From contig CAMDSO010000004.1 of the NCBI GenBank assembly GCA_945906935.1, forward strand, positions 7,427 through 71,426: a stretch of 64,000 nt of DNA. The letters run 5' to 3'. Below the pieces are notes generated by a model. It was given only the letters and a program-made list of their open reading frames with translations. It was not told where the DNA came from and did not search any database. Both the position numbers and the translations under genes were made by a program. Positions 6,294-64,000 of this stretch are shown piece after piece. Source of the DNA: Bordetella parapertussis. GTDB taxonomy: Bacteria > Pseudomonadota > Gammaproteobacteria > Burkholderiales > SG8-41. Position 1 is the stretch's first letter. Each line of letters starts with the position of its first letter.

Positions 6294-6316
6294 TGACGCT
6301 ATGACGCTATGACGCA
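6294..6316 (+). repeat. Tandem octamer TGACGCTA x3 (last copy TGACGCA)
   Basis: Read directly. It sits immediately upstream of, and overlapping, the first ATG of the selenoprotein candidate. Confidence 0.7.
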
Positions 6317-7946
6317 AAGGGAAATGACTATGAGTGACACGCAAATGGTTCTCGATCCGGTGGCGCCCGCCAGCGTGGCCGGTGACAGCGCGACTTTTCG
6401 TCCACTGGCAACACTGGCCGGCAAGGTCGTCGCTTTCATCGATAACTCGAAACCGAATTTCAGCTTGCTTGCCGACGATCTCGGCGAATTGCTGATGGCG
6501 AAATACGGGGTGGTGAAAATCGTCAGGCACCGCAAGCCGACCGCTTCGGTATCGGCCTCGCCGCAGGTGTTCGCCGATATCAAGCAGCAATGTGATCTGG
6601 TTATCACAGGCTCCGGCGACTGAGGGGGCTGCACGTCGTGGAGTGTCCACGACAGTGTAGAGGGCGCGAAGCAGGGTCTGAGTGCGCTGGTGGTGTGTTC
6701 GACTGCCTTTATTACGCTCGGTCGTTCGCAATTGCACGCGCTGGGTGGCGGTAGTTTGCCGATCGCCGTGATGCCGCATCCCTTTGGTGTGCGCACGCGC
6801 GCGCTGGTGCGTGAATTAGCGGAAACGCTGGTCGATGAGATTGTGCGTCTGGCCACCGGCGGCATCGATAAGACCGCGCAGGCGGTCAACGTCGGCAGTG
6901 CAATGATCACTGCTGCTGCGGTACTCGGCATGCCCAATGATTTGATCGCTTTCAATGAAGAATGTGAACGCCGCCGTTGGAGCGATGGCTTGCCGCTGAT
7001 TCCACCAACGGAATCGCGGGTCGAACAGATGCTGACCGGCACACAGCGCGCGCGGCACGCGGTAGTCGCCCGTGTGGCACCGGGTTTCGGCGAGGCGACT
7101 GTGGAACGCATCGCCATTAACGCCGTGATGGCCGGCTGCCGTGCAGAATATCTGCCGGTGTTGATGGCTGCGGTCGAGGCGGTAGCTGATCCGCGGTTCA
7201 ATATTCAGGGCATACAGGCGACCACCAATTCAGCGGCGCCGTGGATCATCGTCAACGGACCGTTGGCGACGCAACTGGGTTTTAACGCAGGACTTAATTG
7301 TCTGGGCCAGGGCACACGCGCCAACGCCACGCTGGGGCGCGCGCTGCGGCTTGTTCTACAAAACATCGGCGGTGCCTTGCCCGGTGAAATGGACAGGGCC
7401 ACGCACGGCCAGCCCGGCAAGTACAGCTTCTGCTGCGCCGAGAATGAAGCGGCCAGTCCGTGGACACCGCTGCATGCCGAGCGCGGTTTTGCGAATGATG
7501 AAAACGTCGTCACCGTGGTGGGTGCTGCGGGTACGTTAAATCTGAATTCGCATTCAAAAGACGCCGCCGATCTGCTGCGTGTGATCGCCGCCAGCATGAG
7601 CTATCCGACCAGCAACGACATGCACTTTGCCGGCGAACCCTGGCTGATTCTGTCGCCTGAGCACGCCGACGTGTTCGCACGTGGCGGCTACGACAAGGTC
7701 ACCCTCAAAGAGTCGATCTGGGCGCAGTCGAAGATGCCCGCTGCTCGTTTCGCGCGCAAGGATTACGATCGCGCCGAACACGCGCGTAGCAGCGAACTTG
7801 GCGGCTTTGCCGTGGATACGCTGGTGCCGATTTCACCGAGTCCGCGTGATATCGGCATCATCGTCGCCGGCGGCCCCGGCACCCACTCGGTCTATGTGCC
7901 AACTTTTGGACAGACGCGCGCGGTATCGCGTCGCATCGGCGCATGA
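6309..7946 (+). CDS. Candidate selenoprotein: U-G-x-C (UGSC/GrdB-like) N-terminal domain fused to an uncharacterised ~420-aa domain. TGA 6621-6623 is read as Sec.
   Basis: ORFs 6309-6623 and 6690-7946 share one frame and are separated only by TGA 6621-6623. Residues on both sides of the TGA (..ITGSGD-U-GGCTSWSVHDSVEGAKQGLSALVVCSTAF..) are homologous to the paralogue at 63684-64000(-). A SECIS-like hairpin begins 11 nt downstream. The likely start is ATG 6330 (after AGGGAA) or ATG 6309. Confidence 0.6.
6624..6660 (+). promoter_or_regulatory. Putative bacterial SECIS element
   Basis: Upper helix GTCGTGGA/TCCACGAC (6635-6642 / 6646-6653) with GUG apical loop. A lower helix spans 6629-6634 / 6555-equivalent 6655-6660 with bulged A6654. 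There is an 11-nt spacer after the UGA. Loop G and U fall at +23/+24 from the U of UGA. Confidence 0.6.
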
Positions 7947-8899
7947 TGACGCGCCTGTTGTGTGCGCTGGCTTTGGTGTTGCCGGTGGTCGCCGCGTCGG
8001 CTGCGGAATATCCCGAGCGTGCAGTACGGGTGATCGTGACCTTTCCGGCCGGGGGCGGCACCGACATCGTTGCGCGCATGGTGTTTCAAAAAGTTGCCGA
8101 GCGCAGCGGCGCGACCTTCGTAATCGATAACCGCGGCGGTGCGGGCGGCACCATCGGTACCGATCTGGCGGCGAAAGCAGCACCCGATGGTTATACGATC
8201 GTGGTGGTCAGCGGTAGCCACACGATTAATCCAGCGCTCTACAAGAAGCTGCCGTTCGACAGTGTGCGCGATTTCGCGCCAGTGGCGATGCTGGTGACCG
8301 GCCCCGGTCTGCTGGTCGTGCATCCGTCGCTGCCGGCGCGCAATGTGCGCGAATTGATTGCGCTGGCGCGTAGTCAGCGTGGTGGCCTGCTCTATGCCTC
8401 GGCGGGCAACGGCACGCCGCCGCATCTGGCTGCTGAACTCTTTAAGCTGATGACTGCCACGCAGATCGCGCATGTTCCCTACAAAGGTAATGCGCAGGCG
8501 ATGACCGATCTGATCGCCGGGCAGATCGCTTTGTCATTTCCGACCATCCCGTCGGCCTTGCCGCATGTGCAAACGGGCAAGCTGCGCGCCATGGGTGTGA
8601 CCAGTGCAAAACGCGTTGGCGCGCTGCCGGAGATTCCGGCGATTGCTGAAACGGTGACGGGTTACGACGGCAGTGCGTGGTATGGCGTGCTCGCCCCCGC
8701 CGGCACGCCGGCCGCCATCGTCACACGCCTGCATACGGAGTTAATGACGGCACTGCGTACACCCGATCTCAAAGACAAACTGGTTTCGCAGGGCCTCGAG
8801 CCGGCGTCGTATATGCCGGAAGAGTTTTCCGCACTGATCGTCAGCGAACTCGCCAAGTGGGCGAAGGTGGTAGCGGCTGCGGGTGTCAAAAACGAATAG
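7943..8899 (+). CDS. Bug/TctC-family substrate-binding protein
   Basis: ATGA start/stop overlap with the upstream gene (7943-7946). AAEYPERAVRVIVTFPAGGGTD, IDNRGGAGG, HVPYKGNAQA, GKLRAMGV. Confidence 0.9.
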   Translation: MMTRLLCALALVLPVVAASAAEYPERAVRVIVTFPAGGGTDIVARMVFQKVAERSGATFVIDNRGGAGGTIGTDLAAKAAPDGYTIVVVSGSHTINPALYKKLPFDSVRDFAPVAMLVTGPGLLVVHPSLPARNVRELIALARSQRGGLLYASAGNGTPPHLAAELFKLMTATQIAHVPYKGNAQAMTDLIAGQIALSFPTIPSALPHVQTGKLRAMGVTSAKRVGALPEIPAIAETVTGYDGSAWYGVLAPAGTPAAIVTRLHTELMTALRTPDLKDKLVSQGLEPASYMPEEFSALIVSELAKWAKVVAAAGVKNE

Positions 8900-8908
8900 G
8901 AATTTATT

Positions 8909-9784
8909 ATGCCGAACGCTATTGTTGCACCGACCATTCCCGGCCCAATCGCCGACACGCGCACGCCTAATTTCGTCATGCCGCGCGGTGCCTGCGACTG
9001 CCACGCACATCTGTTTGGCCCGCAAACGAAATACGCCTACGCGGCTAACCGTCGCTATACGCCGCCCGATGCGACGGCTGATGACTACATCAAAATGTTG
9101 CGTTCGATTGGAGTCGACCGTGCGGTACTGGTGCAGCCCAGCGTTTACATGACAGATAACACGGTGATTCTCGATGCGCTGGCGGAAAACAAGTTTCCCT
9201 TTCGTGCCGTTGCCGTGGTCAATGATGAAGTCAGTGATGCCGAGCTCGCACGCATGCACAAGCTCGGTGTGCGTGGCTTGCGCCTGAATCTGCGTAACAG
9301 CAACGGTGCGCCCGGTGATCTCGCACCACGGCTGGCCGCGCGCATTGCGCCCATGGGTTGGCATTTGCAGTTTCGGATCAACGCCGAGGATTTCACCGCT
9401 ATCGGGCCGATGCTGCGTACGCTGCCGGTTGATTACATCATCGATCATATGGGGCAGGTGCCGATCGCAGAGGGTGTTAACGGCGTAGCCTTTCGCGCCA
9501 TTCTTGACCTTACGCAGAGTGGCCGCTGCTGGGTCAAACTCTCCGCCCCGATGCGTATGAGTGCACTCGACGCGCCGTATCGCGATGTCACCCCCATGGT
9601 GCATGCGCTGGTCGCCGCCGCGCCCGAGCGTATGGTGTGGGCGAGTGACTGGCCGCACACCACGCTGACCTGTGCGATGCCCAATGATGGCGACCTCGTT
9701 GATTTGCTGCCCGAGTGGATACCGGATGCGGTGACGCGCCAGAAAATCCTCGTCGATAATCCGGCCAGGCTCTACGGTTTCTGA
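8909..9784 (+). CDS. Amidohydrolase-2 family metal-dependent hydrolase (LigI/lactonase-like)
   Basis: ACDCHAHLFGP (HxH metal motif), DRAVLVQPS, GVRGLRLN, WHLQF, IIDHMG, WVKLSAP, WASDWPH. This is the typical TIM-barrel amidohydrolase-2 pattern. Confidence 0.85.
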   Translation: MPNAIVAPTIPGPIADTRTPNFVMPRGACDCHAHLFGPQTKYAYAANRRYTPPDATADDYIKMLRSIGVDRAVLVQPSVYMTDNTVILDALAENKFPFRAVAVVNDEVSDAELARMHKLGVRGLRLNLRNSNGAPGDLAPRLAARIAPMGWHLQFRINAEDFTAIGPMLRTLPVDYIIDHMGQVPIAEGVNGVAFRAILDLTQSGRCWVKLSAPMRMSALDAPYRDVTPMVHALVAAAPERMVWASDWPHTTLTCAMPNDGDLVDLLPEWIPDAVTRQKILVDNPARLYGF

Positions 9785-9847: not shown

Positions 9848-10810
9848 ATGCATAAAAAAATTATTTGCGCCGCGCTTTGGACAGTGACGGTGACTTACGG
9901 CCCTGCCATTGCGCAGGAATATCCGACCAAACCGATTCGCTACATCGTGCCCTTTGGTGCCGGCGGACCGACCGACACGCAAGCGCGCTGGGTCGCGCAA
10001 AAACTCAATGCAGCCTTCGGCCAGACGGTGATTGTTGATAACCGGCCGGCGGCCGGCGGCGTGCCGGGCACTGCGGCGGTGGCGAAGGCGGCCCCCGACG
10101 GCTACACGCTGCTGGCCGGTAATCCGGGCCCGTTGACGGTGGCGCCGGCGATTTCGCTGAACGTGCCCTATGACCCGCTGCGTGATTTCACGCCAGTGAC
10201 GCTGGTGGCGAAAAGCCCCAGCGTGCTGATCGTGCATCCGGCGCTACCGGCAAAAAACGTCAGGGAGTTCGTCGCGCTCGCCAAAGCGCGTCCGGGTAAA
10301 CTCAACTACGGCACGCCGGGGGTGGGCACCGTCGGCCATCTTTCGACCGAGGCTTTCGCGCATCTCACCGGCATCAATGTCATGCACGTGCCCTATAAGG
10401 GCGGTGTGAGCCAGTACACGATAGAACTGATTTCCGGTTACATTGATTTCGCTTCGCTGCAACTCTTTAACGTCGCGCCCATGGTTAAGCAGGGCAAGCT
10501 GCGCGCCCTCGGTATCACCTCGCGCGAGCGCTCGCCGGCGATGCCGGAGCTGGCGACCTTCAACGAGCAGGGTGTGAAATTCGAGAACTACAATTGGAAC
10601 GGTGTGCTGCTGCCGGCGAAAACGCCGCCGGCGATCGTGGCGCGGATCTACGGTGTGCTGGCCGCCGCGATCAAGGAAAACCGCGAGCTTTTTACCGGGC
10701 AGGGGCAGGAGCCTGGCGGCGAGAACAGCGAGCAATTCAGCGAGTTTTTGCGTGCGGAAATCGAGCGCTATGAAAAAGTCGCACGGGCTGCGAATATTCC
10801 AAAACAATAA
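9848..10810 (+). CDS. Bug/TctC-family substrate-binding protein
   Basis: Signal peptide, AQEYPTKPIRYIVPFGAGGPTD, VDNRPAAGG, HVPYKGGVSQ, GKLRALGI. Confidence 0.9.
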   Translation: MHKKIICAALWTVTVTYGPAIAQEYPTKPIRYIVPFGAGGPTDTQARWVAQKLNAAFGQTVIVDNRPAAGGVPGTAAVAKAAPDGYTLLAGNPGPLTVAPAISLNVPYDPLRDFTPVTLVAKSPSVLIVHPALPAKNVREFVALAKARPGKLNYGTPGVGTVGHLSTEAFAHLTGINVMHVPYKGGVSQYTIELISGYIDFASLQLFNVAPMVKQGKLRALGITSRERSPAMPELATFNEQGVKFENYNWNGVLLPAKTPPAIVARIYGVLAAAIKENRELFTGQGQEPGGENSEQFSEFLRAEIERYEKVARAANIPKQ

Positions 10811-51500: not shown

Positions 51501-53165
51501 GTGAAATCAATACTGGCGGCACTGCTATGCGCTGCGTGTGGCGTGGCGTTCGCGCAAAGCGCCGACGATTTGCTGAACAATAAGGGCAACACGGATAACG
51601 TGACGACCTTCGGCATGGGCTACGACCTGAAGATGTACAGCCCCTTGAAGCAGATCAATAAAACGAACGTGAAAAAGCTGGTGCCGGCGTGGACCTTCAG
51701 CACCTCCAACGACATGGGCGATTTGTCGCAGCCGACCGTTTACAACGGCGTGATGTATGTGGTGAACGGCAACTGGACCTTTGCCATCGACATCGACACC
51801 GGCCGCCAGATCTGGCGCCAGCCGGTGAGTTACGACCGCGGCGCCCTGCGCGTGGCCGGTGGCGGTGCGCTGATGCGTGGTGCGGCGACCATCTACAACG
51901 GCAAGCTCTTCCGCCAGTCGCTCGACGCGCATGTGCTGGCGCTCGACATGAAAACCGGCAAAGAAGTGTGGAAGCAGAAATACGCTGAATTCAAGGAAGG
52001 CTATAAGGGCGTGATTGCGCCGATGATCGCCAACGGCGTGCTGATCAACGGCACCGGCGGTGGCGAGAGCACCACACGCGGTTTTGTCGAAGGTTATGAC
52101 CCGGAGACCGGCAAACGGCTGTGGCGCACCTGGACCATCCCTGCGCCGGGCGAGCCGGGTTCGGAGACCTGGCCCAATCAGTCGAAGCCCGACGCCTGGA
52201 AATACGGCGGCGGTTCGACCTGGCAGTCGGCGTCCTACGACCCCGAGCTTGATCTCGTCTACATCGGCACTGGCAATGCGGAGCCCTATAACCCGATCTA
52301 TCGGGATGGTGCCGACAGCCTCTACACGGCGAGCGTGCTGGCGATCCGGCCGAAGACCGGCGAAATCGCCTGGTTTTATCAATATGTACCGAACGATACC
52401 TACGACTTTGATTCGACCGCCGAGTGCGTGATCGCCGACCTAATGGTCGACGGCCAAAAGCGTAAGGTGCTGATCAACGCGCACAAGAACGGCTTTATGT
52501 ATGTAATCGACCGCACCAACGGCAAGCTGATCGCCGCGAATGCGTTCGTTAACGTCAACTGGGCGACGCACATCGATCTGAAAACCGGCCGGCCGGTGCC
52601 GACCGACCTGCTGCAGCGCGCGATGAAGGGTGAGACGGTGTTGCTGACGCCGTCGCGCGGCACCAATGCCACGCTGATTGCGTTTAACCCGAACAACAAC
52701 CTGGTCTATGCCAACACCTGGAACTTTCCGCGCACCTTCAAGTTTACTGAGGCGAAGTTCGTGCTGGGCGGGAACTATACGGCGATGCAGTCGTCGATGG
52801 CGGTACCCAAAGGCGAGCCGGCCGGTTATCACGAGGCGATCGATCCGTTGACCGGCAAGGTGGTCTGGAAAACGCCGATGATGGAAATGCCGAGTTCGGC
52901 TGGCATGCTGGCCACCGCCGGCGGTCTCTTGTTCACCGGTGAGCTGACCGGAGAAGTCATCGCGCTCGATCAGGATACTGGCAAGAAGATCTGGCAGTTC
53001 AAGACGGGCTCCAGCGTCAATGCCCCGCCAATCACCTTTACGCACAAGGGCAAGCAATATGTCGCAGTGCTGTCAGGTCGTGGCGGTAGTAATGCCGGAC
53101 GTTTCGTCAATAACAGCGTGCCCGCAGGCGGCTCGGTGTGGGTCTTTGCACTGAAAGAAGATTAG
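51501..53165 (+). CDS. PQQ-dependent alcohol dehydrogenase (ExaA/PedH-like), paralogue 1, no vicinal Cys-Cys
   Basis: GTG start after GGGGGAGAA, with a signal peptide. GMGYDLKMYSPLKQIN, eight-blade propeller W-motifs, YDFDS (D-x-D). RVAGGGALMRG sits where the family normally has VCC. Confidence 0.88.
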   Translation: MKSILAALLCAACGVAFAQSADDLLNNKGNTDNVTTFGMGYDLKMYSPLKQINKTNVKKLVPAWTFSTSNDMGDLSQPTVYNGVMYVVNGNWTFAIDIDTGRQIWRQPVSYDRGALRVAGGGALMRGAATIYNGKLFRQSLDAHVLALDMKTGKEVWKQKYAEFKEGYKGVIAPMIANGVLINGTGGGESTTRGFVEGYDPETGKRLWRTWTIPAPGEPGSETWPNQSKPDAWKYGGGSTWQSASYDPELDLVYIGTGNAEPYNPIYRDGADSLYTASVLAIRPKTGEIAWFYQYVPNDTYDFDSTAECVIADLMVDGQKRKVLINAHKNGFMYVIDRTNGKLIAANAFVNVNWATHIDLKTGRPVPTDLLQRAMKGETVLLTPSRGTNATLIAFNPNNNLVYANTWNFPRTFKFTEAKFVLGGNYTAMQSSMAVPKGEPAGYHEAIDPLTGKVVWKTPMMEMPSSAGMLATAGGLLFTGELTGEVIALDQDTGKKIWQFKTGSSVNAPPITFTHKGKQYVAVLSGRGGSNAGRFVNNSVPAGGSVWVFALKED

Positions 53166-53195
53166 AAAGCTGCCCAAAGAAGGCAGCGCTAAACA

Positions 53196-53229
53196 CCCCC
53201 TCGCCCCGCGATAGCGGGGAGAGGGGGTT
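53196..53229 (+). repeat. G-rich hairpin repeat
   Basis: CCCCCTCGCCCCGCGATAGCGGGGAGAGGGGGTT, between PQQ-ADH paralogues 1 and 2. Confidence 0.65.
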
Positions 53230-53292
53230 GGATCGGTAGACCGCGACAAAGCTCTGGTTTCCGAACATTTTATTTTTCCGGGGAGGAAAGTC

Positions 53293-54954
53293 ATGAAACA
53301 CCTGATCGCCGCACTCTTGTGCGGTTGTTTTACGCTCGCCCACGCGCAAACCGCGCAGGATTTGCTGACCGACGGTAAAAACACCGAGAACATCACGACC
53401 TACGGCATGGGCTATGACATGAAGCGTTACAGCCCGCTCAAGCAGATCAACACGTCCAACGTGAAGCGATTGGTTCCGGTGTGGAGCATGAGCATGGCCA
53501 ATGATCTGGGCGAGCAGGCGCAGCCGATGATTTATAACGGCGTTATGTATGTGACCAACGTCAAATGGACCTTCGCCATCGATGTCGCCACCGGCAAGCA
53601 GATCTGGCGCACGCCGGTTGATTACGATCCGGGCACGCCGCGTGTGGTGTGCTGCGGCGTCTCTAACAAGGGACCGGCGATCTTTAACGGCAAGCTCTAT
53701 CGCGTGACGCTCGACGCGCATGTGCTGGCCCTCGACATGAAAACCGGCAAGCAGTTATGGAAAAACAAATTTGCCGAGTGGAAAGAAGGCTACTCCTCGA
53801 TCGCCGCGCCACTGGTTGCCAACGGCGTGTTGATCACTGGCATGTCGGGCGCCGAGTTCGGTGTGCGCGGTTTTCTCGACGGCTGGGATCTCGAAACCGG
53901 CAAAGCGTTGTGGCGGCGTTACACCATCCCGGGGCCGGGCGAGCCGGGTTCCGAAACCTGGCCGACTGAAGTCGATGCCTATAAACGTGGCGGCGGTTCG
54001 ACCTGGATTACTGGTTCCTACGACCCGGAACTGGATTTGACTTACTGGGGTACCGGCAACGCAGCGCCGTGGAATACGCGTTATCGCGGCAAGGACAGTC
54101 TCTATTCAGCGAGTGTTGTCGCCATCCGCCCGAAGACCGGTGAAATTGTCTGGCACTATCAGTTCACGCCTGACGATTCATTCGACTACGACGGCGTGAA
54201 CGAAAACGTGATCGCCGATATCAACATCGACGGCGCCTTGCGCAAGGTGATCCTGCACGCCGACCGCAACGGCTTCTTCTACGTCATAGACCGCGCCAAT
54301 GGCAAACTGCTGCGCGCCTTTCCGTTCGGCAAGGTCAACTGGGCGACGCATGTCGACCTGAAGACCGGGCGTCCGGTGGAGACCGATGTGCGGGCGCGTT
54401 TGATCGCTGGCGAAGAAGTTGAGTTGTGGCCGGCCTTTGGTGTGAAGAATTGGGCGCAGATGTCGTTCAATCCGAAGAGCGGCATTGTCTATATGAATAC
54501 CATCAACTTCCCGCAATTCTTCAAATTGGTGCCCACCGAATACAAGGCCGGCACGCGTTATACCGGTGCCGTGAGCCGTCCTTCTCCGCGTGCGCCTGGT
54601 GATGATGCCGAGGGCTTTCAGGTGGCGCTCGATCCGCTGACCGGCAAGGTCAAGTGGCAGAACAAGCTCACCGACTATGTTTCGCAGGCCGGGATGTTGT
54701 CGACCGAGGGCGGATTGGTATTCACCGGTCGTATGACCGGCGAGTTTGAAGCACTCGACGAAGCGACCGGCAAGTTGTTATGGAAATTCCAAACTGGATC
54801 TGGTGTCAATGCGCCGCCGGTTACCTATACCCACAAGGGCCGTCAGTACATCACTGTGTTGTCGGGGCTGGCCGGCGATTCACGCGGCCGCAAGGCGGCG
54901 CCGACTGTGCCGGCTGGCGGTGCGGTGTGGACGTTCGCGTTGTTGCCTGAATAA
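53293..54954 (+). CDS. PQQ-dependent alcohol dehydrogenase (ExaA/PedH-like), paralogue 2, canonical Cys-Cys
   Basis: Signal peptide. GMGYDMKRYSPLKQIN. RVVCCGVSNKG (Cys120-Cys121, nt 53650-53655). FDYDG (D-x-D, nt 54184-54192). Confidence 0.9.
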   Translation: MKHLIAALLCGCFTLAHAQTAQDLLTDGKNTENITTYGMGYDMKRYSPLKQINTSNVKRLVPVWSMSMANDLGEQAQPMIYNGVMYVTNVKWTFAIDVATGKQIWRTPVDYDPGTPRVVCCGVSNKGPAIFNGKLYRVTLDAHVLALDMKTGKQLWKNKFAEWKEGYSSIAAPLVANGVLITGMSGAEFGVRGFLDGWDLETGKALWRRYTIPGPGEPGSETWPTEVDAYKRGGGSTWITGSYDPELDLTYWGTGNAAPWNTRYRGKDSLYSASVVAIRPKTGEIVWHYQFTPDDSFDYDGVNENVIADINIDGALRKVILHADRNGFFYVIDRANGKLLRAFPFGKVNWATHVDLKTGRPVETDVRARLIAGEEVELWPAFGVKNWAQMSFNPKSGIVYMNTINFPQFFKLVPTEYKAGTRYTGAVSRPSPRAPGDDAEGFQVALDPLTGKVKWQNKLTDYVSQAGMLSTEGGLVFTGRMTGEFEALDEATGKLLWKFQTGSGVNAPPVTYTHKGRQYITVLSGLAGDSRGRKAAPTVPAGGAVWTFALLPE

Positions 54955-54979
54955 TCAGATTGTTTACGAGGGGAGAGAC

Positions 54980-56644
54980 ATGAAAAAAATACTCGCATTA
55001 TTGTTGATGGGTTGCTGCGCGGTGGTGCAGGCGCAGACGGCGGATGAATTGCTCAATGAGGGCAAGAACACGGAAAACGTAACCTTGCTTGGCACCGGTT
55101 ACGACATGAAGATGTTCAGTCCGCTCAAGCAGATCAATAAGTCGAACATCAAGCGTCTGGTACCGGTCTGGACTTTCAGTCTCTCTAACGAGATGGGCGA
55201 GTTGTCGCAGCCCACCATCTATAACGGCGTGATGTATGTGGTGAATGGCAACTGGACCTTCGCCATCGACGTCGGTACCGGTCGTCAGATTTGGCGCACG
55301 CCCGTTAGCTACGATCGTGGCGCCCTGCGCATGACCACCGGTGGTGCTTATATGCGCGGTGCGGCCACCATCTACAACGGCAAACTGTTCCGCCAGACTA
55401 TTGACGGTCATGTGCTCGCGCTCGACATGAAGACTGGCAAGGAACTCTGGAAAACGAAATTCGGCGAGTGGAAGGAAAGTTACGCCGGCATCGTCGCGCC
55501 GGCCATCGTCAACGGCGTGCTGATCTCCGGCATGGCTGGTGGCGACCGCACCGCACGTGGTTTTGTCGACGGCTATGACCCGGAAACCGGTATGCGCCTG
55601 TGGCGCACCTGGACCGTGCCGGAACCCGGCCAGAAAGGTTCCGAGACCTGGCCGAACAAGGACATGCCCGATGCGTGGAAATACGGCGGTGCGGCGACCT
55701 GGCAGCCGGGTTCGTATGATCCGCAGCTCGATCTCTTTTACATCGGCACCGGCAATCCGGAACCGTACAACCCGAAATATCGCGCTAATCTGGACAGCCT
55801 CTACGCCTCATCGATACTGGCGATCCGGCCGAAGACCGGTGAATTGGTCTGGTATTACCAGTATGTGCCAAACGATACCTTCGACTTTGACGGTACCGCG
55901 GAGAGCATCCTTGCCGACGTGCAGATCGACGGTAATCCGCGCAAGGTGCTATTTAACGTCAACAAGAATGGTTTTCTCTATGTGCTTGACCGCACTAACG
56001 GTCAGCTGATCTCGGCGACGCCGTTCATGGCGCAAAACTGGGCGAAATATATCGACCTTAAGACCGGCCGTCCGGTGCTGACCGATTTGCTTGATCTCGC
56101 CCTTAAAGGCGAGACTATCGACCTGTCGCCGGCGCGTGCCACCAACGCCACGCTTTCCGCCTACAACCCGAAGACCGGGCTGCTGTTTCTCAATTCATGG
56201 GAGGCCATACGCGTGATGAAGTTTGTCGACGTCAAGCTTGTGGTTGGTAGCGGTTACACCGGTATCGCGGGCGGCTACAAGAATCCGCCCAATCTCGCGC
56301 CCGGTTATCACATCGCGATCAATCCGATCACCGGCAAAACTGCGTGGAAGATTCCGCTCGACGAGTTCGCTGTTTCGGCCGGCACGCTGGCCACCGACGG
56401 CGGCCTGTTGTTCACCGGCAAACTTACTGGCGAATTCATCGCGCTTGATCAGGACAGCGGCAAACAGCTGTGGCAGTTCAAGACCGGCTCCAGCGTCAAT
56501 TCGCCGCCTATTACATACACGCACAAAGGCGTGCAATACGTGACGGTGTTGAGCGGACGCGGCGGCAGCAATCCGACGCGCTCGGCCGGTACCGTCGTGC
56601 CTGCCGGCGGCGCGGTTTATACCTTTGCCTTGATGCCGGAGTAA
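54980..56644 (+). CDS. PQQ-dependent alcohol dehydrogenase (ExaA/PedH-like), paralogue 3, no vicinal Cys-Cys
   Basis: ATG 54980 after GAGGGGAGAG, with a signal peptide. GTGYDMKMFSPLKQIN. RMTTGGAYMRG in place of VCC. FDFDG (D-x-D). Confidence 0.88.
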   Translation: MKKILALLLMGCCAVVQAQTADELLNEGKNTENVTLLGTGYDMKMFSPLKQINKSNIKRLVPVWTFSLSNEMGELSQPTIYNGVMYVVNGNWTFAIDVGTGRQIWRTPVSYDRGALRMTTGGAYMRGAATIYNGKLFRQTIDGHVLALDMKTGKELWKTKFGEWKESYAGIVAPAIVNGVLISGMAGGDRTARGFVDGYDPETGMRLWRTWTVPEPGQKGSETWPNKDMPDAWKYGGAATWQPGSYDPQLDLFYIGTGNPEPYNPKYRANLDSLYASSILAIRPKTGELVWYYQYVPNDTFDFDGTAESILADVQIDGNPRKVLFNVNKNGFLYVLDRTNGQLISATPFMAQNWAKYIDLKTGRPVLTDLLDLALKGETIDLSPARATNATLSAYNPKTGLLFLNSWEAIRVMKFVDVKLVVGSGYTGIAGGYKNPPNLAPGYHIAINPITGKTAWKIPLDEFAVSAGTLATDGGLLFTGKLTGEFIALDQDSGKQLWQFKTGSSVNSPPITYTHKGVQYVTVLSGRGGSNPTRSAGTVVPAGGAVYTFALMPE

Positions 56645-57026: not shown

Positions 57027-57803
57027 ATGGTTTTTAGAAAACTCTGGATTAGTGCGTTGGCGGCAGTTTTCTGTGGCCTGATATCGGCGGCTGCGCTTGC
57101 GCAAACCGTACTGGAACAGGCGGCCGAACATCGTCTGCAGCTTGATTTTCGCGTGAATGATGCGGCGCTCTCGAAGATGCTGCCGGCAGGCTGGGAAGTG
57201 GTGATCGCCACGGCGGGACCGGCCAAGGATTGCAATCTGCGCATGATCTTCATCGACCGTATGGGCATCATTGGCCGTGATGGAAAACCTGCTGTGCGGC
57301 CGACCGGGCGTTTGGTCTATCTTGCTATTCCGGTGAAGAGGACCGGCACTGATGTCGCCGGCCAGATCATCATTCATGGTCTGGTTGATCAGGCCGCCGA
57401 TGCGCCCGGTGACTTCGGTGTTTACCAGCATGCAACGACGGCGAAAATGTCGCGCACTTCGTCTGCTGCGGGTGCCGCGATGATGGGAGCCGAGATCTGG
57501 GAGTTTGCCGCCGCCAGCGGTGAGCGCATCGAAGTGCAGATCGAATACGAGCGCGGCCCCTTGGTCAAGGGAACCCCCGAGGTCAAGTTTTTCTATGCCA
57601 ACGATCCGTCGAAATACCTGACCTTCAAGGTGGATCAGGGGATCGACATCATGCGTAACGTGACGACCAATCCGCTGGATCGTGTGAAGAAATTTTCCTA
57701 CAAGGCGGGTGGCGGAAAAATCGCCGCATTGTTTGATGGCAGTGAACGCTTGGTCAGCTGGGACAGCTTCCCGTGGTATGTGCGTTCAGTGATTGCACCC
57801 TGA
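57027..57803 (+). CDS. Secreted hypothetical protein
   Basis: RBS GGGAGA. Signal peptide MVFRKLWISALAAVFCGLISAAALAQ. I recognise no family. Confidence 0.6.
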   Translation: MVFRKLWISALAAVFCGLISAAALAQTVLEQAAEHRLQLDFRVNDAALSKMLPAGWEVVIATAGPAKDCNLRMIFIDRMGIIGRDGKPAVRPTGRLVYLAIPVKRTGTDVAGQIIIHGLVDQAADAPGDFGVYQHATTAKMSRTSSAAGAAMMGAEIWEFAAASGERIEVQIEYERGPLVKGTPEVKFFYANDPSKYLTFKVDQGIDIMRNVTTNPLDRVKKFSYKAGGGKIAALFDGSERLVSWDSFPWYVRSVIAP

Positions 57804-57846
57804 GCGGTTTTTAGAACCGCCGCAGAGCGGGTATCATTTGTGGTTT

Positions 57847-59508
57847 ATGCAGGGACAGGCGGCGGCAACGCCGCCTTCTTTATTGATGGCGTCCAAACGC
57901 ACGATTGCTGATTTTATTAAACCCGCTGCGGTGCTGGCGGGATTTCCCGAGCACGATTACACGCTGAGCGGTCTTTTACAGTCACGTCTGCAACCGGCTG
58001 CGACGCGGCCCTGCATCCTGTTCAATGACAAGACCTGGACGTGGTCGGAGTTCGTCGACGCCGTTGGTAAAACCGCTGGCATGCTCGCCGCGCGTGGCAT
58101 CCGTCACGGCGACCGCGTTGCCGTTATGGCGGGCAACAGCGATGCCCATGTGCGGATGTTGTTTGCGCTCGCACGTCTTGGCGCCATCATGGTACCGGTT
58201 AATCCTGATTACGGCGTCGAAGAAGCGCGTTATGTGTTGCATCACGCCGGGGTGTCGGCGGTGGCCTGCTCCGATGCGACCCTTGATGTGGCGCGTGCCG
58301 CAACCGCGGAGATGACGCCAGCGCCGTGGTTCATGGGTGTGCTTGGCGAGGATGCCTCGGTGACCTCGCTTGACGCGCTGGTGACGGCATCGAATGCGGT
58401 GGTCCCCGCTTCAGCGGCGCAGGCCGACGATACGGTGGTCATTATTTATACCTCGGGCACCACCGGCTTTCCGAAGGGTGTGATGCACAGCCAGCGCAGT
58501 TTCTGTTTATCGGGCGAGCGCGAGATCGAGCGCTCTTATCTGCAAGCGCGTAACCGCGCGCTGATCGTGTTGCCGATGTTTCATATCAACGCGCTGTTTT
58601 ATTCGGTGGCGGGCACGTTTGTGGTGGGTGGTTGCATAGTGATCGCGCCGCGTTTTTCTGCTTCGCAATTCTGGAAACTGGCCGCTGACACGCAGGTGAC
58701 GCGCGCCAATGTGATGTTGGCCGGCATGACCATCCTGACACGGCGGCCGCGCAGCGAATACGACGACCAGCATTGCCTCGAAATCATCGTCTGCGGCGGC
58801 CTCACCGATGAAATCGTTGATACCTGCACACAAGAGTTCGGGATCAAGAAACTGGTCGAAGGTTTCGGCATGACCGAAGTGCCAGGGACTTTTGGTGTGC
58901 CGGTCGAGGCGCAGCAAACGCGCGGTAGCATGGGTGCGCCGGGCATTTATCCCGGCAACAAAATGCTGTGGGCGCAGGTGCGTATCGTCGATGATGAAGG
59001 GCGCGATGTGGCCGATGGCGTCACTGGCGAAATGCTGGTGCGCATGCCGACGATGCTGCAGGGCTATTACAAAGACGCCGAGCAGACGGCGGCGGCGATT
59101 CGTGATGGCTGGTTTTATACCGGTGACCTGGTCTGCCGCAACGAAGATGGCTGGTACAGCTTCATCGCGCGCAAGAAAGATATCATCCGTCGGCGCGGTG
59201 AAAATATCTCCGGCGCTGAACTCGACCGCGTGATCGGCACGCATCCCGCGGTGTCGGCGGTGGCTGTGATTGCGGTGAGCGACGATATCAGCGGTGAAGA
59301 GGCGCTGGCGGTGGTGGTACGCAAGCCGCAGCAGGACGTCAGTGCGCAGGACATCGCCGCGTGGTGCGGCGAGCGGCTGGCGGTTTTCAAGGTGCCGCGT
59401 TACGTGGTGTTTGCCGATGAGCTGCCGCGCACGCCAACTGGCAAGGTGGCAAAACACATTCTGAAAAAAGATATGATGCTGGTAGTGCGGGCCGTCGCGG
59501 TGCGTTGA
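57847..59508 (+). CDS. AMP-dependent synthetase/ligase (acyl-CoA synthetase family)
   Basis: IIYTSGTTGFPKGVMHSQ, GWFYTGD, RKKDIIRRRGENIS, PRTPTGKVAK. The start is ambiguous: 57793, 57847 or 57886. Confidence 0.88.
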   Translation: MQGQAAATPPSLLMASKRTIADFIKPAAVLAGFPEHDYTLSGLLQSRLQPAATRPCILFNDKTWTWSEFVDAVGKTAGMLAARGIRHGDRVAVMAGNSDAHVRMLFALARLGAIMVPVNPDYGVEEARYVLHHAGVSAVACSDATLDVARAATAEMTPAPWFMGVLGEDASVTSLDALVTASNAVVPASAAQADDTVVIIYTSGTTGFPKGVMHSQRSFCLSGEREIERSYLQARNRALIVLPMFHINALFYSVAGTFVVGGCIVIAPRFSASQFWKLAADTQVTRANVMLAGMTILTRRPRSEYDDQHCLEIIVCGGLTDEIVDTCTQEFGIKKLVEGFGMTEVPGTFGVPVEAQQTRGSMGAPGIYPGNKMLWAQVRIVDDEGRDVADGVTGEMLVRMPTMLQGYYKDAEQTAAAIRDGWFYTGDLVCRNEDGWYSFIARKKDIIRRRGENISGAELDRVIGTHPAVSAVAVIAVSDDISGEEALAVVVRKPQQDVSAQDIAAWCGERLAVFKVPRYVVFADELPRTPTGKVAKHILKKDMMLVVRAVAVR

Positions 59509-59521: not shown

Positions 59522-60535
59522 ATGCGAGTACCTATGAATCAAAATTCTGGAGTTGTAGCGGTAGTTTTATGCGCAGTATTGCTGTTGGCCGGGCAAGCGG
59601 GACAGGCGGTGCTGGCGGCTGAAAAATCCGCAACCGGTGATTATCCAAACCGGCCGATCCGTTTGATTACGCCGGCGCCGCCCGGCGGCTCGACGGATTT
59701 TCTCTCGCGCATCATTGCGCCGCGTCTGGCCGATGCGTTGAAGGGCAGCATCGTTATTGATAATCGCGGTGGTGCCGGTGGTGTGGTCGCCGCCGAGATC
59801 ACTGCGAAGGCGCCGGCCGATGGCTACACCTTGCTGATGGCTTATTCATCGCACACGACGAATCCGAGCCTCAATCCGAAAGCCGGTTATCGTGCCGTCG
59901 ACGATTACGCGCCGGTCACGCAGGTGACGATGGCAGCGCTGGTGCTGGTGGTTAATCCACAGCTGCCGATTAATTCGGCCAGAGAGATGATCGCCTACGG
60001 CAAGGCCAATCCGAACAAACTCAATTTCGGTTCGGCCGGCAACGGCAGTGGTGCCCATATGTCGCTGGAGTTATTCAAATACATGACGGGGCTACCGGCG
60101 CAGCATATTCCGTACAAGGGCATGGGGCCGGCGGTGATTGATCTGCTTGGCGGGCAGATCCAGGCGATGTTCGCCGGCATGCTGCCGATCCAGTCGGTGT
60201 TGCGTGCCGGGCGCGTGCGTGCTTTGGCAGTGACTTCCTTGCGGCGGGTGTCGTCGCTGCCCGATATCCCCACTATTGCGGAGACCGGCGTGCCTGGTTA
60301 CGACGTTGCGACGTGGTACGGCGTGTTGGCACCCGCCGGCACGCCCAGGCCCATCGTCGACCGGCTCAATCGTGAAATCGTCACCATTCTGAAAACGCCC
60401 GAGGTGCGGCAGAAACTGCAGGACGATGGGGCTGAAGTGGTGGCCGGCACACCGGAGGCGTTTGAGAAGATGATGCGTGCCGAGCTCGAGAAATGGGCGC
60501 GCGTGGTGAAGGCCACCGGCGCGCGGCTGGATTGA
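59522..60535 (+). CDS. Bug/TctC-family substrate-binding protein
   Basis: Signal peptide, GDYPNRPIRLITPAPPGGSTD, IDNRGGAGG, HIPYKGMGPA, GRVRALAV. The start is 59522 or 59534. Confidence 0.9.
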   Translation: MRVPMNQNSGVVAVVLCAVLLLAGQAGQAVLAAEKSATGDYPNRPIRLITPAPPGGSTDFLSRIIAPRLADALKGSIVIDNRGGAGGVVAAEITAKAPADGYTLLMAYSSHTTNPSLNPKAGYRAVDDYAPVTQVTMAALVLVVNPQLPINSAREMIAYGKANPNKLNFGSAGNGSGAHMSLELFKYMTGLPAQHIPYKGMGPAVIDLLGGQIQAMFAGMLPIQSVLRAGRVRALAVTSLRRVSSLPDIPTIAETGVPGYDVATWYGVLAPAGTPRPIVDRLNREIVTILKTPEVRQKLQDDGAEVVAGTPEAFEKMMRAELEKWARVVKATGARLD

Positions 60536-60694: not shown

Positions 60695-61894
60695 TTAGTC
60701 GCCGCCGATCGTGCCGGATTGTTTCAGCGCGGCGATCTCTGCGTCATTCATCTGCAAAACCTCACGCAGGATTTCCGAGCTGTGCTGACCGTGCAGCGGC
60801 GCCGGTGTATCCGGCATTGGCGGCATTGCCGGCAGACGCAGCGGTGAGCGCACCTGTTTGACCTTGCCGGCGTTCGGATGATCCGTTTCGATCATGACGC
60901 CGCGCGCCTTGACCTGCGGATGCTGCATCACCTGTTCGATGTTATTGATCGCACCGACCGGCACGTTGTTATCGAGCAGCAACTTTTCCCACTCATCGTA
61001 GGATTTGGTGATGAAGATAGCCTGCAGCTTGGGTACCAGCGATTCGCGGTTTTTCATGCGCAGCGGGCCCGTCGCGTAGAGCGGATCGTCGGTGAGTTCG
61101 GGGGCGCCGATCACCGGGCAGAAAATCTTCCATAGTTTCTGTCCGGCAATAGCCAGCGCGAGATCGCGTGTTTTGGTTTGAAAGGTTTGATAGGGCACGA
61201 CGACCGGGTAAGCGTTGCCCTGGGGTTTGGGCATTTCGCCGTTCGCATAGTAGTTGCCGATGGTGGTGCACAGCAGCGCCAGCTGGCCTTCCATCATCGA
61301 CACATCAACGTGCTGGCCCTCGCCGGTTTTCTCACGCATGCGGATGGCCAGCATCACGCCATAAGCGGCATTCATGCCGGCGGCGAGGTCGGCGATCGAC
61401 ACGCCGCAGCGCACGCCGCGGCCGCCGGCTTCGCCGGTGCAGCTGATCATGCCTGACTCGGCTTGCAGGATCAGGTCGAGCGCGGCGCGATCGCGATAGG
61501 GGCCGTCCTGACCAAAACCGGAGACGGAACAGTAGACGATGCCGGGGTTGCGCTTCTTCGCTTCTTCGTAACCGAGGCCGAGGCGGTTCAAGGCGCCGAC
61601 GCGGAAGTTCTCCAGCACGACATCGGCTTTTTCAATCAGCTTGAAGAAGAGCGCCTTGCCCTCGGGCTTTTTCAGATCGACGACGATGCTACGTTTGTTG
61701 CGGTGGATGGTCACGAAGTACGCATAATCCGGCCCCGGCACCGGCGAGCCCCAGGCGCGTGCAAGGTCGCCCGCACCCGGTGGTTCGAGCTTGATCACGT
61801 TGGCGCCGTAGTCGGCGAGCATGGTCGAGCAGTAGGGCCCGGCAAGGGCGTGGGTAAGGTCGATAACGGTGATGTCGTCTAACGGACGTGGCAT
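60695..61894 (-). CDS. CaiB/BaiF (class III) CoA-transferase
   Basis: ITVIDLTHALAGPYCSTMLADYGANVIKLEPPGAGD signature. Length 399 aa. Confidence 0.9.
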   Translation of the reverse strand: MPRPLDDITVIDLTHALAGPYCSTMLADYGANVIKLEPPGAGDLARAWGSPVPGPDYAYFVTIHRNKRSIVVDLKKPEGKALFFKLIEKADVVLENFRVGALNRLGLGYEEAKKRNPGIVYCSVSGFGQDGPYRDRAALDLILQAESGMISCTGEAGGRGVRCGVSIADLAAGMNAAYGVMLAIRMREKTGEGQHVDVSMMEGQLALLCTTIGNYYANGEMPKPQGNAYPVVVPYQTFQTKTRDLALAIAGQKLWKIFCPVIGAPELTDDPLYATGPLRMKNRESLVPKLQAIFITKSYDEWEKLLLDNNVPVGAINNIEQVMQHPQVKARGVMIETDHPNAGKVKQVRSPLRLPAMPPMPDTPAPLHGQHSSEILREVLQMNDAEIAALKQSGTIGGD

Positions 61895-61948: not shown

Positions 61949-62371
61949 CTAGTGCGCGGCGCCGCCCTTGGGCAGTTCGGCGAGTTCGATCAGGCAGTTC
62001 TCGGTGGCCGACGGATCGATGAAGGCGATGCGGCAGCCGGCATGACCGTAGCGCGGCACCTGGTCGAGCAGCGGTATGCCCTTGGCTTTGAGTTCGGCCA
62101 GCGCCTCGTCGATGTTCTCGACTTCGAAGCACATATGATTAAGTCCGCCCTTGCCCTCGGCGACCATTTTCTGGTGGCGGCTGTCGGGGGTGGTGCCGGC
62201 AATCAGTTCCACCATCGAATCACCGACCGGGTAGAGCGCCAGTTTCACTGGCTTTTCCGGATTGATTTCGGTGGCTTCGAGCTTGATGCCGAAACAGCCT
62301 TCCCACAATGCGCGGCTTTTCTCGACATCCTTGACGACGATACCCACGTGTTCGATGCGTTTGATCTTCAT
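61949..62371 (-). CDS. VOC-family protein, methylmalonyl-CoA epimerase-like
   Basis: MKIKRIEHVGIVVKDVEKS and GLNHMCFEVENIDEA are paired beta-alpha-beta-beta-beta modules with metal-ligand His/Glu. Length 140 aa. Confidence 0.75.
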   Translation of the reverse strand: MKIKRIEHVGIVVKDVEKSRALWEGCFGIKLEATEINPEKPVKLALYPVGDSMVELIAGTTPDSRHQKMVAEGKGGLNHMCFEVENIDEALAELKAKGIPLLDQVPRYGHAGCRIAFIDPSATENCLIELAELPKGGAAH

Positions 62372-62493
62372 GCTATGGCCTCCGGTGGCGTTGCGTTGAT
62401 CCGCAATAATGTGATGCTTTGCGGAAAGTTTTTTTTCCTGCCCTTGTGTGCGCCGGGTAGAAGGGTCTGGGTGGAGGCACGTTGGTGCGCCTC

Positions 62494-62526
62494 CATCCCG
62501 TCCTTCCCCCGCACGCAGGGAAAGGA
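62494..62526 (-). repeat. G-rich hairpin repeat (reverse orientation, degenerate)
   Basis: CATCCCGTCCTTCCCCCGCACGCAGGGAAAGGA, preceded by hairpin GGAGGCAC-GTTG-GTGCGCCTCC. Confidence 0.5.
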
Positions 62527-62571
62527 ACCTGCTGCAGATGCTTAATGATTCAGCTTGGTGCCGATTTTACT

Positions 62572-63687
62572 TCAGCCTTGCCTGAAATCCTGTACCGATT
62601 TTGCGAGCGCGCCGTCGCGTGTTTTAAGGGCACGTGTCACCGCCTGCGTGGCGCCAAAGGTGTGTATATAGGCGGAGTGTTTGCCGGCGCCGCCGATGAC
62701 AACGACGATCAAATCCTGCGCGCGCTGTATCATCGGCACCAGGGCGTCGAGTGGCGCGGTGGCAAAGCGGTCGGCGATCTTGACGCGCAAACGGCGCTCG
62801 ATGTTTTCTTTGGAAAATTTTCCTAGCGGCAGCTGGCCGTGCGCCTGCAGAAATTTTTTTACATCCATCTTCGACAGACCGTCCTGGGCCACGGTCTTCG
62901 CGTGTTCGGGCCCGAATACGGCGACCGGCTGCGCTTCGTAGCAGGGATCGTTCGATCCGGCATCCATCATGGTGCCGGCAATGGTGGTGAGGATACCCTC
63001 GGCGTTAAGGCTTTCATGATCATTGACGTTGTGCGGACACTCCGCACCGACCACCGTGACGGTGCTCGCTTCGCGCGGAAAGCCGCGCTCGACGTGCAGC
63101 GGTTCCCACGGGCTTTCATCTTCATTTTCGGCGACGAAGTAGCAGTATTTGGCCGGCGAACCGAAAGTCGACATATCCCCGGTTTTTGGGATGGCGCCGC
63201 CAATGTTGACCAGTGCGAGACGAATGGCGCGGCCGATCGTCGCATTGCTCTGCGTGCCGGGGCCGAAGGCGTTGTGCCCGCCATTGATACCGAGTTCTTT
63301 GATTACCGGGCCGTTGACGATCACCAGCGGCGCGCACATATGCGTGGTCGCCTGGATGCCATAGAGATTGAAGGGCTCCTCGCACATCGCCTCGATGGCG
63401 AGCATGAAGAGCGGAAAATATTCGGGCCGGCAGCCGGCCATCACCGCATTGGCGGCGAGACGCAGCGGCGTGGCCTCGCCCCAGCGCGGTGGAATCTTCG
63501 CGATGGGTTCATCCCAAGGCCGGTCGCAATAGGCCAGCATTTTTTCAACGCGCGCCTCGGTTGGTGGCACGATCGGCAGACCGTCGGTCCAGCCACGCTC
63601 GAGATAGAGCGCGTTGATTGCTTCGAAATCATCCTCGGCGTCGATGCTGGCGCCGTCGTTCTTCAGCAGGTCGTTGAGATGGCTCAC
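62572..63687 (-). CDS. Uncharacterised partner protein, homologous to the C-terminal domain of the 6309-7946 fusion
   Basis: GTG 63687 overlaps the upstream TGA (GTGA). It shares GWTDGLPIVPPTEARVEKML, AANAVMAGCRPEY, YGIQATT, SNATIGRAIRLALVNIGGA, SPWEPLHVERGF and VVIGGAGKHS with residues ~190-545 of the fusion. Confidence 0.8.
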   Translation of the reverse strand: MSHLNDLLKNDGASIDAEDDFEAINALYLERGWTDGLPIVPPTEARVEKMLAYCDRPWDEPIAKIPPRWGEATPLRLAANAVMAGCRPEYFPLFMLAIEAMCEEPFNLYGIQATTHMCAPLVIVNGPVIKELGINGGHNAFGPGTQSNATIGRAIRLALVNIGGAIPKTGDMSTFGSPAKYCYFVAENEDESPWEPLHVERGFPREASTVTVVGAECPHNVNDHESLNAEGILTTIAGTMMDAGSNDPCYEAQPVAVFGPEHAKTVAQDGLSKMDVKKFLQAHGQLPLGKFSKENIERRLRVKIADRFATAPLDALVPMIQRAQDLIVVVIGGAGKHSAYIHTFGATQAVTRALKTRDGALAKSVQDFRQG

Positions 63688-64000
63688 GACAGATGGTCCT
63701 TGATAAGTTTGATCACCTGCGGAATGGCGACGAGCGCGCGGCCCTGCACTTGTTCGAGCGACAAACCGCCGAGCGGATGCGCGATCATCACCAACGGCAG
63801 CGTTGGTACACCAAGCACGCGCGCCTGCGTCGAGCCGAGTGTGCGGAAAGGATCGGAGCAGATCACCGCGGCGAGCACGCCACGTTTATGCATCTGGGTC
63901 ATGTCGTGGACACTCCACGACGTGCAGGCCCCTCAATCGGCCATCGCGCAGATGACCACGTCGGCTTCCGTCGACAATTGGTCCAGCACCTCCTGCGTCG
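63684..64000 (-). CDS. Candidate U-G-x-C selenoprotein (partial; the 5' end lies beyond the window). TGA 63933-63935 is read as Sec.
   Basis: The minus frame reads ..TQEVLDQLSTEADVVICAMAD-U-GACTSWSVHDMTQMHKRGVLAAVICSDPFRTLG..VMIAHPLGG.. This is collinear with the 6309 locus across the TGA. ORF 63684-63902 is only the post-UGA part. Confidence 0.6.
63903..63932 (-). promoter_or_regulatory. Putative bacterial SECIS element (second copy)
   Basis: On the minus strand, GTCGTGGAGTGTCCACGAC (63921-63903) begins exactly 11 nt after the UGA. It is identical to the hairpin at 6635-6653. Confidence 0.6.

Follow-up and report, generated by a model that had tools for sequence, protein, structure and literature searches.

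The window analyzed here is a stretch of 64,000 nucleotides from an assembly recorded as Bordetella parapertussis (GCA_945906935.1, contig CAMDSO010000004.1, positions 7,427 to 71,426; GTDB order Burkholderiales). It holds two members of a known, uncharacterized system, in which a UGSC-family selenoprotein module is joined to a partner module of about 350 residues. One member is split into two overlapping genes at the window end and the other is fused into a single gene (Table 1). Neither is a new kind of system.

Table 1. Coordinates of the two UGSC-partner loci and of neighboring genes in the window.
Feature	Position	Strand	Basis or remark
Split UGSC-family selenoprotein gene, 3' 105 codons	63684..64000	-	translation; Pfam PF24696; start beyond window
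In-frame UGA, predicted selenocysteine, motif D-U-G-A-C-T-S-W	63933..63935	-	translation and homologous sites
SECIS-like hairpin GUCGUGGA-GUG-UCCACGAC	63903..63921	-	fold; begins 11 nucleotides after UGA
GTGA stop/start overlap of UGSC gene and partner gene (translational coupling)	63684..63687	-	sequence
Partner gene, 371 residues, uncharacterized family	62572..63687	-	open reading frame; AlphaFold model
Fused UGSC-partner selenoprotein gene, 545 codons including U	6309..7946	+	single frame, one TGA; hidden Markov model and Pfam matches
In-frame UGA, predicted selenocysteine, motif D-U-G-G-C-T-S-W	6621..6623	+	translation and homologous sites
SECIS-like hairpin, sequence identical to that of the split copy	6635..6653	+	fold; 11 nucleotides after UGA
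VOC/methylmalonyl-CoA-epimerase-like gene	61949-62371	-	
Class III CoA-transferase gene	60695-61894	-	
Acyl-CoA synthetase gene	57793-59508	+	
TctC gene	59522-60535	+	
TctC genes around the fused copy	4239-5354, 5312-6253, 7943-8899, 9848-10810		
Amidohydro_2 gene near the fused copy	8909-9784		

In the split copy, minus-strand positions 63684-63998 translate to TQEVLDQLSTEADVVICAMAD, an internal TGA (63935-63933), and GACTSWSVHDMTQ...KDHLS before the final TGA (63686-63684). The original prediction, made from the letters of the window, had described a gene reading ..CAMAD-U-GACTSWSVHD.., with its TGA at 63933-63935 and its end at 63684, whose stop overlaps the start of a 371-residue gene. The translation agrees in each respect, with the GTG start codon of the partner (63687-63685) sharing the letters GTGA with the UGSC stop. 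Extension past position 64000, which had been proposed as a way to the N-terminus, was achieved with an identical public contig (L001; ENA ERZ27280264 k141_1737259, 38.6 kb). There the complete UGSC gene has 181 codons (98 residues, U, and 82 residues; L001:9459-10004). Its protein begins MNRQIKLVTPDAPPP, an AGAGGA Shine-Dalgarno sequence precedes it, and a TctC gene lies upstream. A separate partner gene just 3' of UGSC is the rule among close orthologous loci, several of which (for example L173) have the same 4-nucleotide overlap of domain coordinates.

The fused gene has one TGA in its frame, in the context ..VITGSGD-U-GGCTSWSVHD... Hidden Markov model matches place the UGSC module at 6309-6887 and the partner module at 6921-7943. 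The true start is likely the ATG at 6330 rather than 6309, because AAAGGGAAA stands 7 nucleotides upstream of it. The 371-residue partner had been called homologous to the C-terminal part of the 6309-7946 protein, and a pairwise comparison of the two loci bears this out with a highly significant alignment: 45% identity over 336 residues with the translation of 6690-7946 (BLASTP, E 4e-102). A model scan of the whole window with TGA read through found no further copy of either module beyond these two loci.

On its profile matches, the U-containing module of the window is the known, uncharacterized UGSC selenoprotein family (Pfam PF24696, NCBIfam NF041046), which the original prediction had not identified. 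The N-terminal module of the fused copy scores 141.2 bits against PF24696 (gathering score 25, E 4.6e-41), and the full-length split protein, with U replaced by C, scores 127.5 bits against NF041046 (cut-off 125). At 107 bits the fused copy falls under the equivalog cut-off of NF041046 (125) and passes the Pfam model only. Both copies share with the family the motif D-U-G-x-C-T-S-W, a UGA expected to encode selenocysteine (Sec), and a downstream hairpin. The split copy differs from the family in nothing essential; the fused copy has G-G-C where the family has G-S/A-C.

The family has been known since 2005-2008 from the work of Zhang, Gladyshev and colleagues, who described a 'UGSC-containing protein' in selenoproteome papers on the Sargasso Sea, Olavius, and the Global Ocean Sampling (GOS) survey (PMC2398784, PMC1976440). 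In the GOS data it was among the most abundant selenoprotein families, with 255 Sec and 21 Cys forms, and was commoner in non-marine samples; its function was not known there (PMC2398784). A 2026 review still lists UGSC among the selenoproteins whose functions 'remain largely uncharacterized' (PMC13188914). A fusion selenoprotein, 'UGSC/Unknown_1', was reported from the GOS metagenome in 2008, in Figure S1A of that paper (PMC2398784). Unknown_1 is probably the partner family described here, as this is the only UGSC fusion partner that we met repeatedly.

To examine the decoding of the UGA, we compared 160 related loci, which gave 151 sites with TGA at the motif and 144 unique 78-mers. At the motif column, TGA stands in the 151 homologous sites and a genuine Cys in three, all from Methanobacteriaceae, so that Sec outnumbers Cys about 50:1 in this sample. 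The hairpin following the UGA in both window loci has a perfect 8-bp stem and a GUG loop. Over the 144 unique sites all eight stem pairs are 96.5-100% paired, with compensatory changes from GC to AU at one pair (2 sequences) and from GC to CG at another (3 sequences). The three Methanobacteriaceae Cys sites have no hairpin. Third codon positions over C-T-S-W-S-V-H-D are 97-99% conserved, against 27-88% in neighboring codons. Synonymous sites are thus frozen only across the hairpin, a sign of selection at the RNA level such as a bacterial Sec insertion sequence (SECIS) would impose. No SECIS or other Rfam family was matched, in the whole window at the gathering threshold or in the UGA region at E<=10. 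Taken together, the conservation pattern supports decoding of the UGA as Sec in both loci.

The TGAs could instead be genuine stops or pseudogene lesions, with three or four small unrelated open reading frames lying next to each other by chance. Public gene callers do split the gene into frames of 98 and 72 residues. The 64-kb window has no tRNA of any kind, tRNA-Sec included, and no sel genes. Against this, the reading frame matches the family before and after the TGA at both loci, the TGA stays in one column over the 151 sites, which come from many phyla, with Cys at that column in archaea, and the hairpin is conserved with covariation. NCBI and Pfam also curate the family as a selenoprotein. 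We regard the true-stop reading as effectively refuted.

In public gene calls, every UGSC gene of the Sec type is broken in two at the UGA (98 plus 72 residues in L001:9459-10004, for example; likewise L002, L003, and all database hits), and Sec-type fusions are shortened in them to about 405-460 residues. The UGSC family is systematically mis-annotated in metagenome protein catalogues.

The 371-residue partner protein has no Pfam or NCBIfam match at E<=1, and neither its single sequence nor a 62-sequence profile found anything meaningful among PDB sequences. Database relatives are named 'hypothetical protein' throughout. The family is nonetheless large: at E<=1e-3 it comprises at least 5379 representative clusters of 50% identity, a number that falls to 1371 at E<=1e-30. 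In split-copy numbering, the conserved columns begin with D35-G-L-P, P42-T43, N80-A-V-M-A-G-C86, T115, G126-P, G142, and G144, and continue with N148, G152-R153-A, D171, K180, Cys184 (86%), E187, E189, P193-W194, H262, and G332-G333. The window copies carry the signature DGLPxxPPT ... NAVMAGC ... GRA. Two Cys columns reach at least about 85% conservation. The first, Cys86, is conserved at 92%. The second is mobile and found at 184, 182, or 80: the split partner of the window has F184 but C182, and several members with V184 carry a Cys at position 80 instead.

AlphaFold models the partner with high confidence (pLDDT 95, pTM 0.93). A Foldseek search of the PDB with this model returned only class I [4Fe-4S] fumarate hydratases (6uqn, 5l2r, 7xky), and these marginally: the best match, 6uqn, has E 1.9e-4, and the matches have TM scores of 0.2-0.31 (0.31 for 7xky), root-mean-square deviations of 12-18 A, 9-12% identity, and probabilities of 0.5-0.8. 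We did not accept the partner as a homolog of these enzymes, given the marginal Foldseek scores and the lack of a profile match to PDB sequences. The three invariant Cys ligands of the [4Fe-4S] cluster are not present in the partner, which has two conserved Cys columns only. Judged by the model, the partner fold appears in practice to have no solved relative. A two-Cys mechanism like that of Asp/Glu racemases was also considered and set aside, as Foldseek gave no such match despite many PDB structures.

The fumarate hydratase matches do raise a different, quite improbable reading. In it, a metal or Fe-S cluster would sit at the interface, liganded by the U/C-x-x-C of UGSC together with the two partner Cys. 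The partner would then be a hydro-lyase-type relative of class I fumarate hydratase, and the complex would be no thiol/selenol reductase. These hydratases are the sole PDB fold matches of the partner model, the two modules offer four potential ligands between them, and an invariant Arg with several acidic residues would suit dicarboxylate binding. Yet the fold matches are as marginal as described. Cluster ligands are normally invariant, whereas here the second Cys moves and some members have lost both Cys or the U/C. In addition, the recurrent fusions described below are to disulfide reductase modules.

To determine how closely the two modules are linked, we surveyed loci from both sides. A partner-seeded scan, run on one genome for each species, yielded 80 loci, 79 of them testable. 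In 76 of these, UGSC is either fused or located directly upstream on the strand of the partner; in the other three it is 2.8-3.6 kb away (two loci) or absent (one locus). Actinophytocola oryzae DSM 45499 has its two genes 2.8 kb apart. A cultivable carrier cited in PMC1976440 is Hyphomonas neptunium. These loci span Burkholderiales and other betaproteobacterial metagenome-assembled genomes (MAGs), Chloroflexi, Deltaproteobacteria, Rhodospirillaceae, Actinophytocola oryzae, and Methanobacteriaceae. In the UGSC-seeded survey, the motif DxG[SA]C[TS]SWS retrieved 592 relatives from metagenome contigs, of which 80 were kept. Where enough downstream sequence was available, the partner follows 3' on the same strand in 70 of 72 loci, within 100 nucleotides in 58. 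When ten distant partner representatives were looked up in their contigs, seven had an adjoining Sec-type UGSC, upstream or downstream, and the exceptions were two thioredoxin-fold fusions and one double partner. The linkage of UGSC and partner is close to obligate in both directions.

Pairs in the sample are arranged as 132 split and 17 fused. The fused form prevails among relatives of the window's fused copy, which argues that the two window copies represent two established clades and not a recent fission. We also examined the domain architectures of 150 diverse partner representatives. Among them are free-standing partners, tandem double partners, full-length Cys-type fusions (DCGSCTSW), Sec-type fusions shortened at the UGA by gene callers, and fusions in the reverse order, partner before UGSC. 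The reverse-order fusions stop exactly at ...GD, before the presumed UGA (P0122, P0135, P0188, P0226). The same reverse order occurs as adjacent genes (L164:4001-5628), so the pairing is independent of gene order.

A Cys-type fusion 38% identical to the window's fused protein was modeled with AlphaFold as one compact body (pLDDT 94.1, pTM 0.93 over 560 residues), with a less confident linker. From the fused and the coupled genes of the window, the two modules had been predicted to work together, and a neighborhood survey of other genomes had been suggested as a check. The prediction is upheld by the linkage at 76 of 79 and 70 of 72 loci, which leaves the partner rarely without UGSC, by fusions in both orders, and by the single-body model.

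Some genomes carry several UGSC-partner pairs. A four-gene variant consists of a UGSC(D-U-G-T-S)-partner fusion, a Cys-less second partner, and a second UGSC with the motif G-U-G-S-C-T-L-C (L078, L079, L082, L083; for example L082:283-3443). In the D-U-G-T-S motif the Sec is kept and the resolving Cys is replaced by Ser. The variant occurs in the same MAGs as orthologs of the split locus (KTt_bin-1913 supplied both L004 and L082) and may form a heteromeric complex.

The fusion model also bears on the fold of UGSC, for which a thioredoxin-like fold was predicted in 2008 (PMC2398784). No thioredoxin fold was among the Foldseek matches of the UGSC module of about 180 residues in this model. Its only matches are weak ones to flavodoxin-like or Rossmann-like alpha/beta proteins, such as MdaB (2amj), NQO1, and the FMN domain of flavorubredoxin (E >= 1.7e-3). 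We did not treat them as homology to flavodoxin-like proteins. A search of PDB sequences with the UGSC sequence found nothing.

Other fusions of the partner point to redox chemistry. Partners are fused to a thioredoxin reductase (TrxR)-like flavoprotein domain (Pyr_redox_2, E 6e-41), to the catalytic beta chain of ferredoxin-thioredoxin reductase (FTR; E 2e-21), and to AhpC-TSA/Redoxin domains of the thioredoxin fold. Immediately upstream of the TrxR-like and FTR-like fusions lies a Sec-UGSC gene, which gives a three-part chain of reductase, UGSC, and partner. Near the two thioredoxin-fold fusions no UGSC was found in the available flanks, which are short, an indication that UGSC can give way to a conventional redoxin.

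Based on these results, we consider it moderately probable that the two loci specify one and the same kind of enzyme, a two-module selenol/thiol reductase supplied with electrons by thioredoxin-type systems. The first module would be UGSC, with an alpha/beta flavodoxin-like fold and a redox-active Sec-x-x-Cys at a strand-to-helix turn, its Sec being inserted at the UGA by means of the hairpin 11 nucleotides downstream. The second would be the partner of about 350 residues, which holds most of the conserved polar residues (D35, T43, N80, T115, N148, R153, D171, K180, E187, E189, and H262). It would supply the substrate pocket and usually the fixed C86 with a second, mobile Cys (184, 182, or 80). 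The modules would form one complex, covalent in the fused copy and made stoichiometrically through the GTGA overlap in the split copy. We infer that electrons would be delivered by a thioredoxin-type system, from NAD(P)H through a TrxR-like flavoprotein or from ferredoxin through an FTR-like domain, and would reduce the Sec-Cys selenenylsulfide of UGSC. With Sec as the catalytic nucleophile, UGSC would then act at the partner active site on a small polar substrate.

Several points weigh against this reading. Reviews up to 2026 give the function of UGSC as unknown (PMC13188914). The linkage surveys were seeded with motifs of the window's own clade, with distant partner relatives sampled 10 times. 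Gene neighborhoods, whether taken from orthologous loci or from Pfam tallies, yield no clue to the substrate. Against the selenoprotein B models of glycine and proline reductases, UGSC scores 13.6-15.1 bits with a cut-off of 602, far below the family threshold. A few partners lack both C86 and C184 (L86/V184, M86/V184) and are nevertheless paired with a Sec-UGSC, and some fused UGSC domains have no U and C while their partner keeps its Cys. No single relay scheme fits all members.

These last variants bear on a further explanation, in which UGSC is only a dedicated redoxin and the partner a self-sufficient thiol enzyme like Msr, Prx, or ArsC. In each turnover the catalytic Cys86 would pair in a disulfide with the resolving Cys (184, 182, or 80), and the Sec-x-x-Cys of UGSC would recycle this disulfide without contact to the substrate. 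Unlike the fixed Cys86, the second Cys is mobile, a typical trait of resolving cysteines; an AhpC/Redoxin domain seems to stand in for UGSC in the fusions that have no UGSC in their flanks; and the degenerate UGSC domains remain joined to partners in which both Cys are kept. However, those flanks are short, and partners without both Cys still pair with Sec-UGSC. The excess of Sec over Cys, about 50:1 here and 255:21 in GOS (PMC2398784), is unusual for a relay redoxin and more like that of catalytic selenoproteins. This preference and the Sec-UGSC genes beside Cys-less partners together argue for a role of the selenol beyond the recycling of a partner disulfide. We consider the redoxin-only explanation rather unlikely and favor the two-module reductase.

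The neighboring genes say little about the substrate. The VOC, CoA-transferase, acyl-CoA synthetase, Bug receptor, and amidohydrolase genes are present around the two loci as the original prediction described them, but the CoA-ester/carboxylate context drawn from them did not hold. Among 57 close orthologous loci, a VOC gene is found at 3, a CoA-transferase gene at 6, and an acyl-CoA synthetase gene at none; a conserved amidohydrolase neighbor was not found among these loci either. In a Pfam tally of two genes either side of about 100 loci, TctC was the sole recurrent neighbor (18 and 22 of 150 each). The Bug receptors are equally uninformative in the window, whose 64 kb contain 21 TctC-like frame segments, or roughly one every 3 kb (another lies at 2906-4255). 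At this density, little can be read from a gene's lying next to a Bug receptor in the window. In one clade of orthologs the pair lies in the order nadK-recN-[pair]-fur-bamE (L012, L014, L015, L026, L033, L042, L043, L052, L059, L087, and others), a housekeeping neighborhood that argues against a purely catabolic-island role.

Two structured elements lie downstream of the split copy on the minus strand. The 200-nucleotide spacer between the partner and VOC genes (62372-62571) folds at -75 kcal/mol (z = -3.3, with 0 of 200 shuffles as stable), and no Rfam family matches it. A strong hairpin within it, GGAGGCGCAC...GUGCCUCC, lacks a U-tail. Directly 3' of the VOC gene and before the CoA-transferase gene is a terminator-like hairpin (61939-61922), GGGCGGTGTGAACCGCCC followed by the T-run TTTTTTTATT. 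Because this hairpin follows the VOC gene, an operon into the CoA-transferase gene is doubtful; its position suggests that the VOC and CoA-transferase genes are separate transcription units.

A few kb from the split locus is a cluster of three genes for PQQ-dependent dehydrogenases and a cytochrome c (Cytochrome_CBB3) gene (51501-56644, plus strand, and L001:16709-21116), with no link seen to the pair. Several MAGs in the survey are labeled 'Chitinophaga pinensis', 'uncultured Streptomyces sp.', or 'Streptomycetaceae bacterium' (L005, L007, L015, L018-L020, L023, L029, L038, L046, L080, L083). Their loci are 70-94% identical to betaproteobacterial genes with the same synteny, and these bins seem to be taxonomically mislabeled.

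To the extent that the literature can be searched, several features of the system appear to go beyond what has been published. These are the near-obligate linkage in both directions, the fusions in reverse order and those to TrxR-like, FTR-like, and AhpC-like domains, the mobility of the second Cys, a UGSC fold other than thioredoxin, and the size of the un-curated partner family. UGSC ranks among the most abundant selenoprotein families in aquatic and soil metagenomes, and for some twenty years no function has been assigned to it. The linkage, the fusions in either order, the attached TrxR-like and FTR-like domains, and the single-body model make that function experimentally approachable. A database model for the partner family would be worthwhile, and the two members of the pair could be annotated jointly.

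Among the systems already described, the 2008 UGSC/Unknown_1 report follows the same Rosetta-stone logic as the fused and split copies of the window (PMC2398784). Here the partner family comprises at least 5379 clusters, has a near-constant link to UGSC, and is mostly encoded by a separate, overlapping gene. Class I fumarate hydratase, the only structural match of the partner, differs in that the partner has neither the three-Cys cluster motif nor a sequence-profile match, and the TM scores are 0.2-0.3.

Many thiol reductases are fused to or partnered with their own redoxin, as in the MsrA/MsrB-thioredoxin and peroxiredoxin-glutaredoxin fusions. As here, a catalytic module is fused to or lies beside a CxxC or UxxC module. 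Modules swapped between lineages (thioredoxin-fold, TrxR-like, and FTR-like) and a mobile resolving Cys are common to both as well. Unlike those systems, UGSC would be a redoxin of non-thioredoxin fold, no described family includes the catalytic module, and partners without Cys still pair with Sec-UGSC.

A more distant likeness is to GrdB/PrdB, the selenoprotein B of the glycine/sarcosine/betaine and D-proline reductases (TIGR01917, TIGR01918, PF07355). The UGSC pattern is a beta-strand, U-x-x-C, a helix, and a G-[IV]-P-T strand followed by HP-x-G. In GrdB/PrdB the Sec-x-x-Cys at the end of a beta-strand, the helix, and the G-[IV]-P-T strand may be in register with it. With hhalign, UGSC matched five PrdB-like GOS reads, a very thin template alignment, at a probability of 56% (E 1.2e-4) with the UxxC aligned. 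Weak matches to TIGR01917/TIGR01918 (0.003-0.02) occurred in 4 of 15 diverse UGSC sequences, and there was no match of UGSC to the Pfam GRDB model (PF07355). These comparisons are suggestive of a distant kinship between UGSC and the Sec region of selenoprotein B. In grd operons the selenoprotein B system takes its electrons from thioredoxin and thioredoxin reductase. Both families prefer Sec strongly over Cys and work with a second, larger subunit. UGSC differs in its size of only about 180 residues, its partner does not resemble the pyruvoyl proproteins GrdE/PrdA, and its hosts are mostly aerobic Betaproteobacteria and not amino-acid-fermenting anaerobes. It is tempting, if speculative, to see in UGSC and its partner an unrecognized and very widespread Sec-dependent two-subunit reductase, an aerobic-world cousin of protein B of glycine and proline reductase. 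The Sec would attack a small substrate held on a catalytic subunit of new fold, the neighboring Cys and thioredoxin-type reductases would recycle it, and paralogous pairs would have different substrate specificities.

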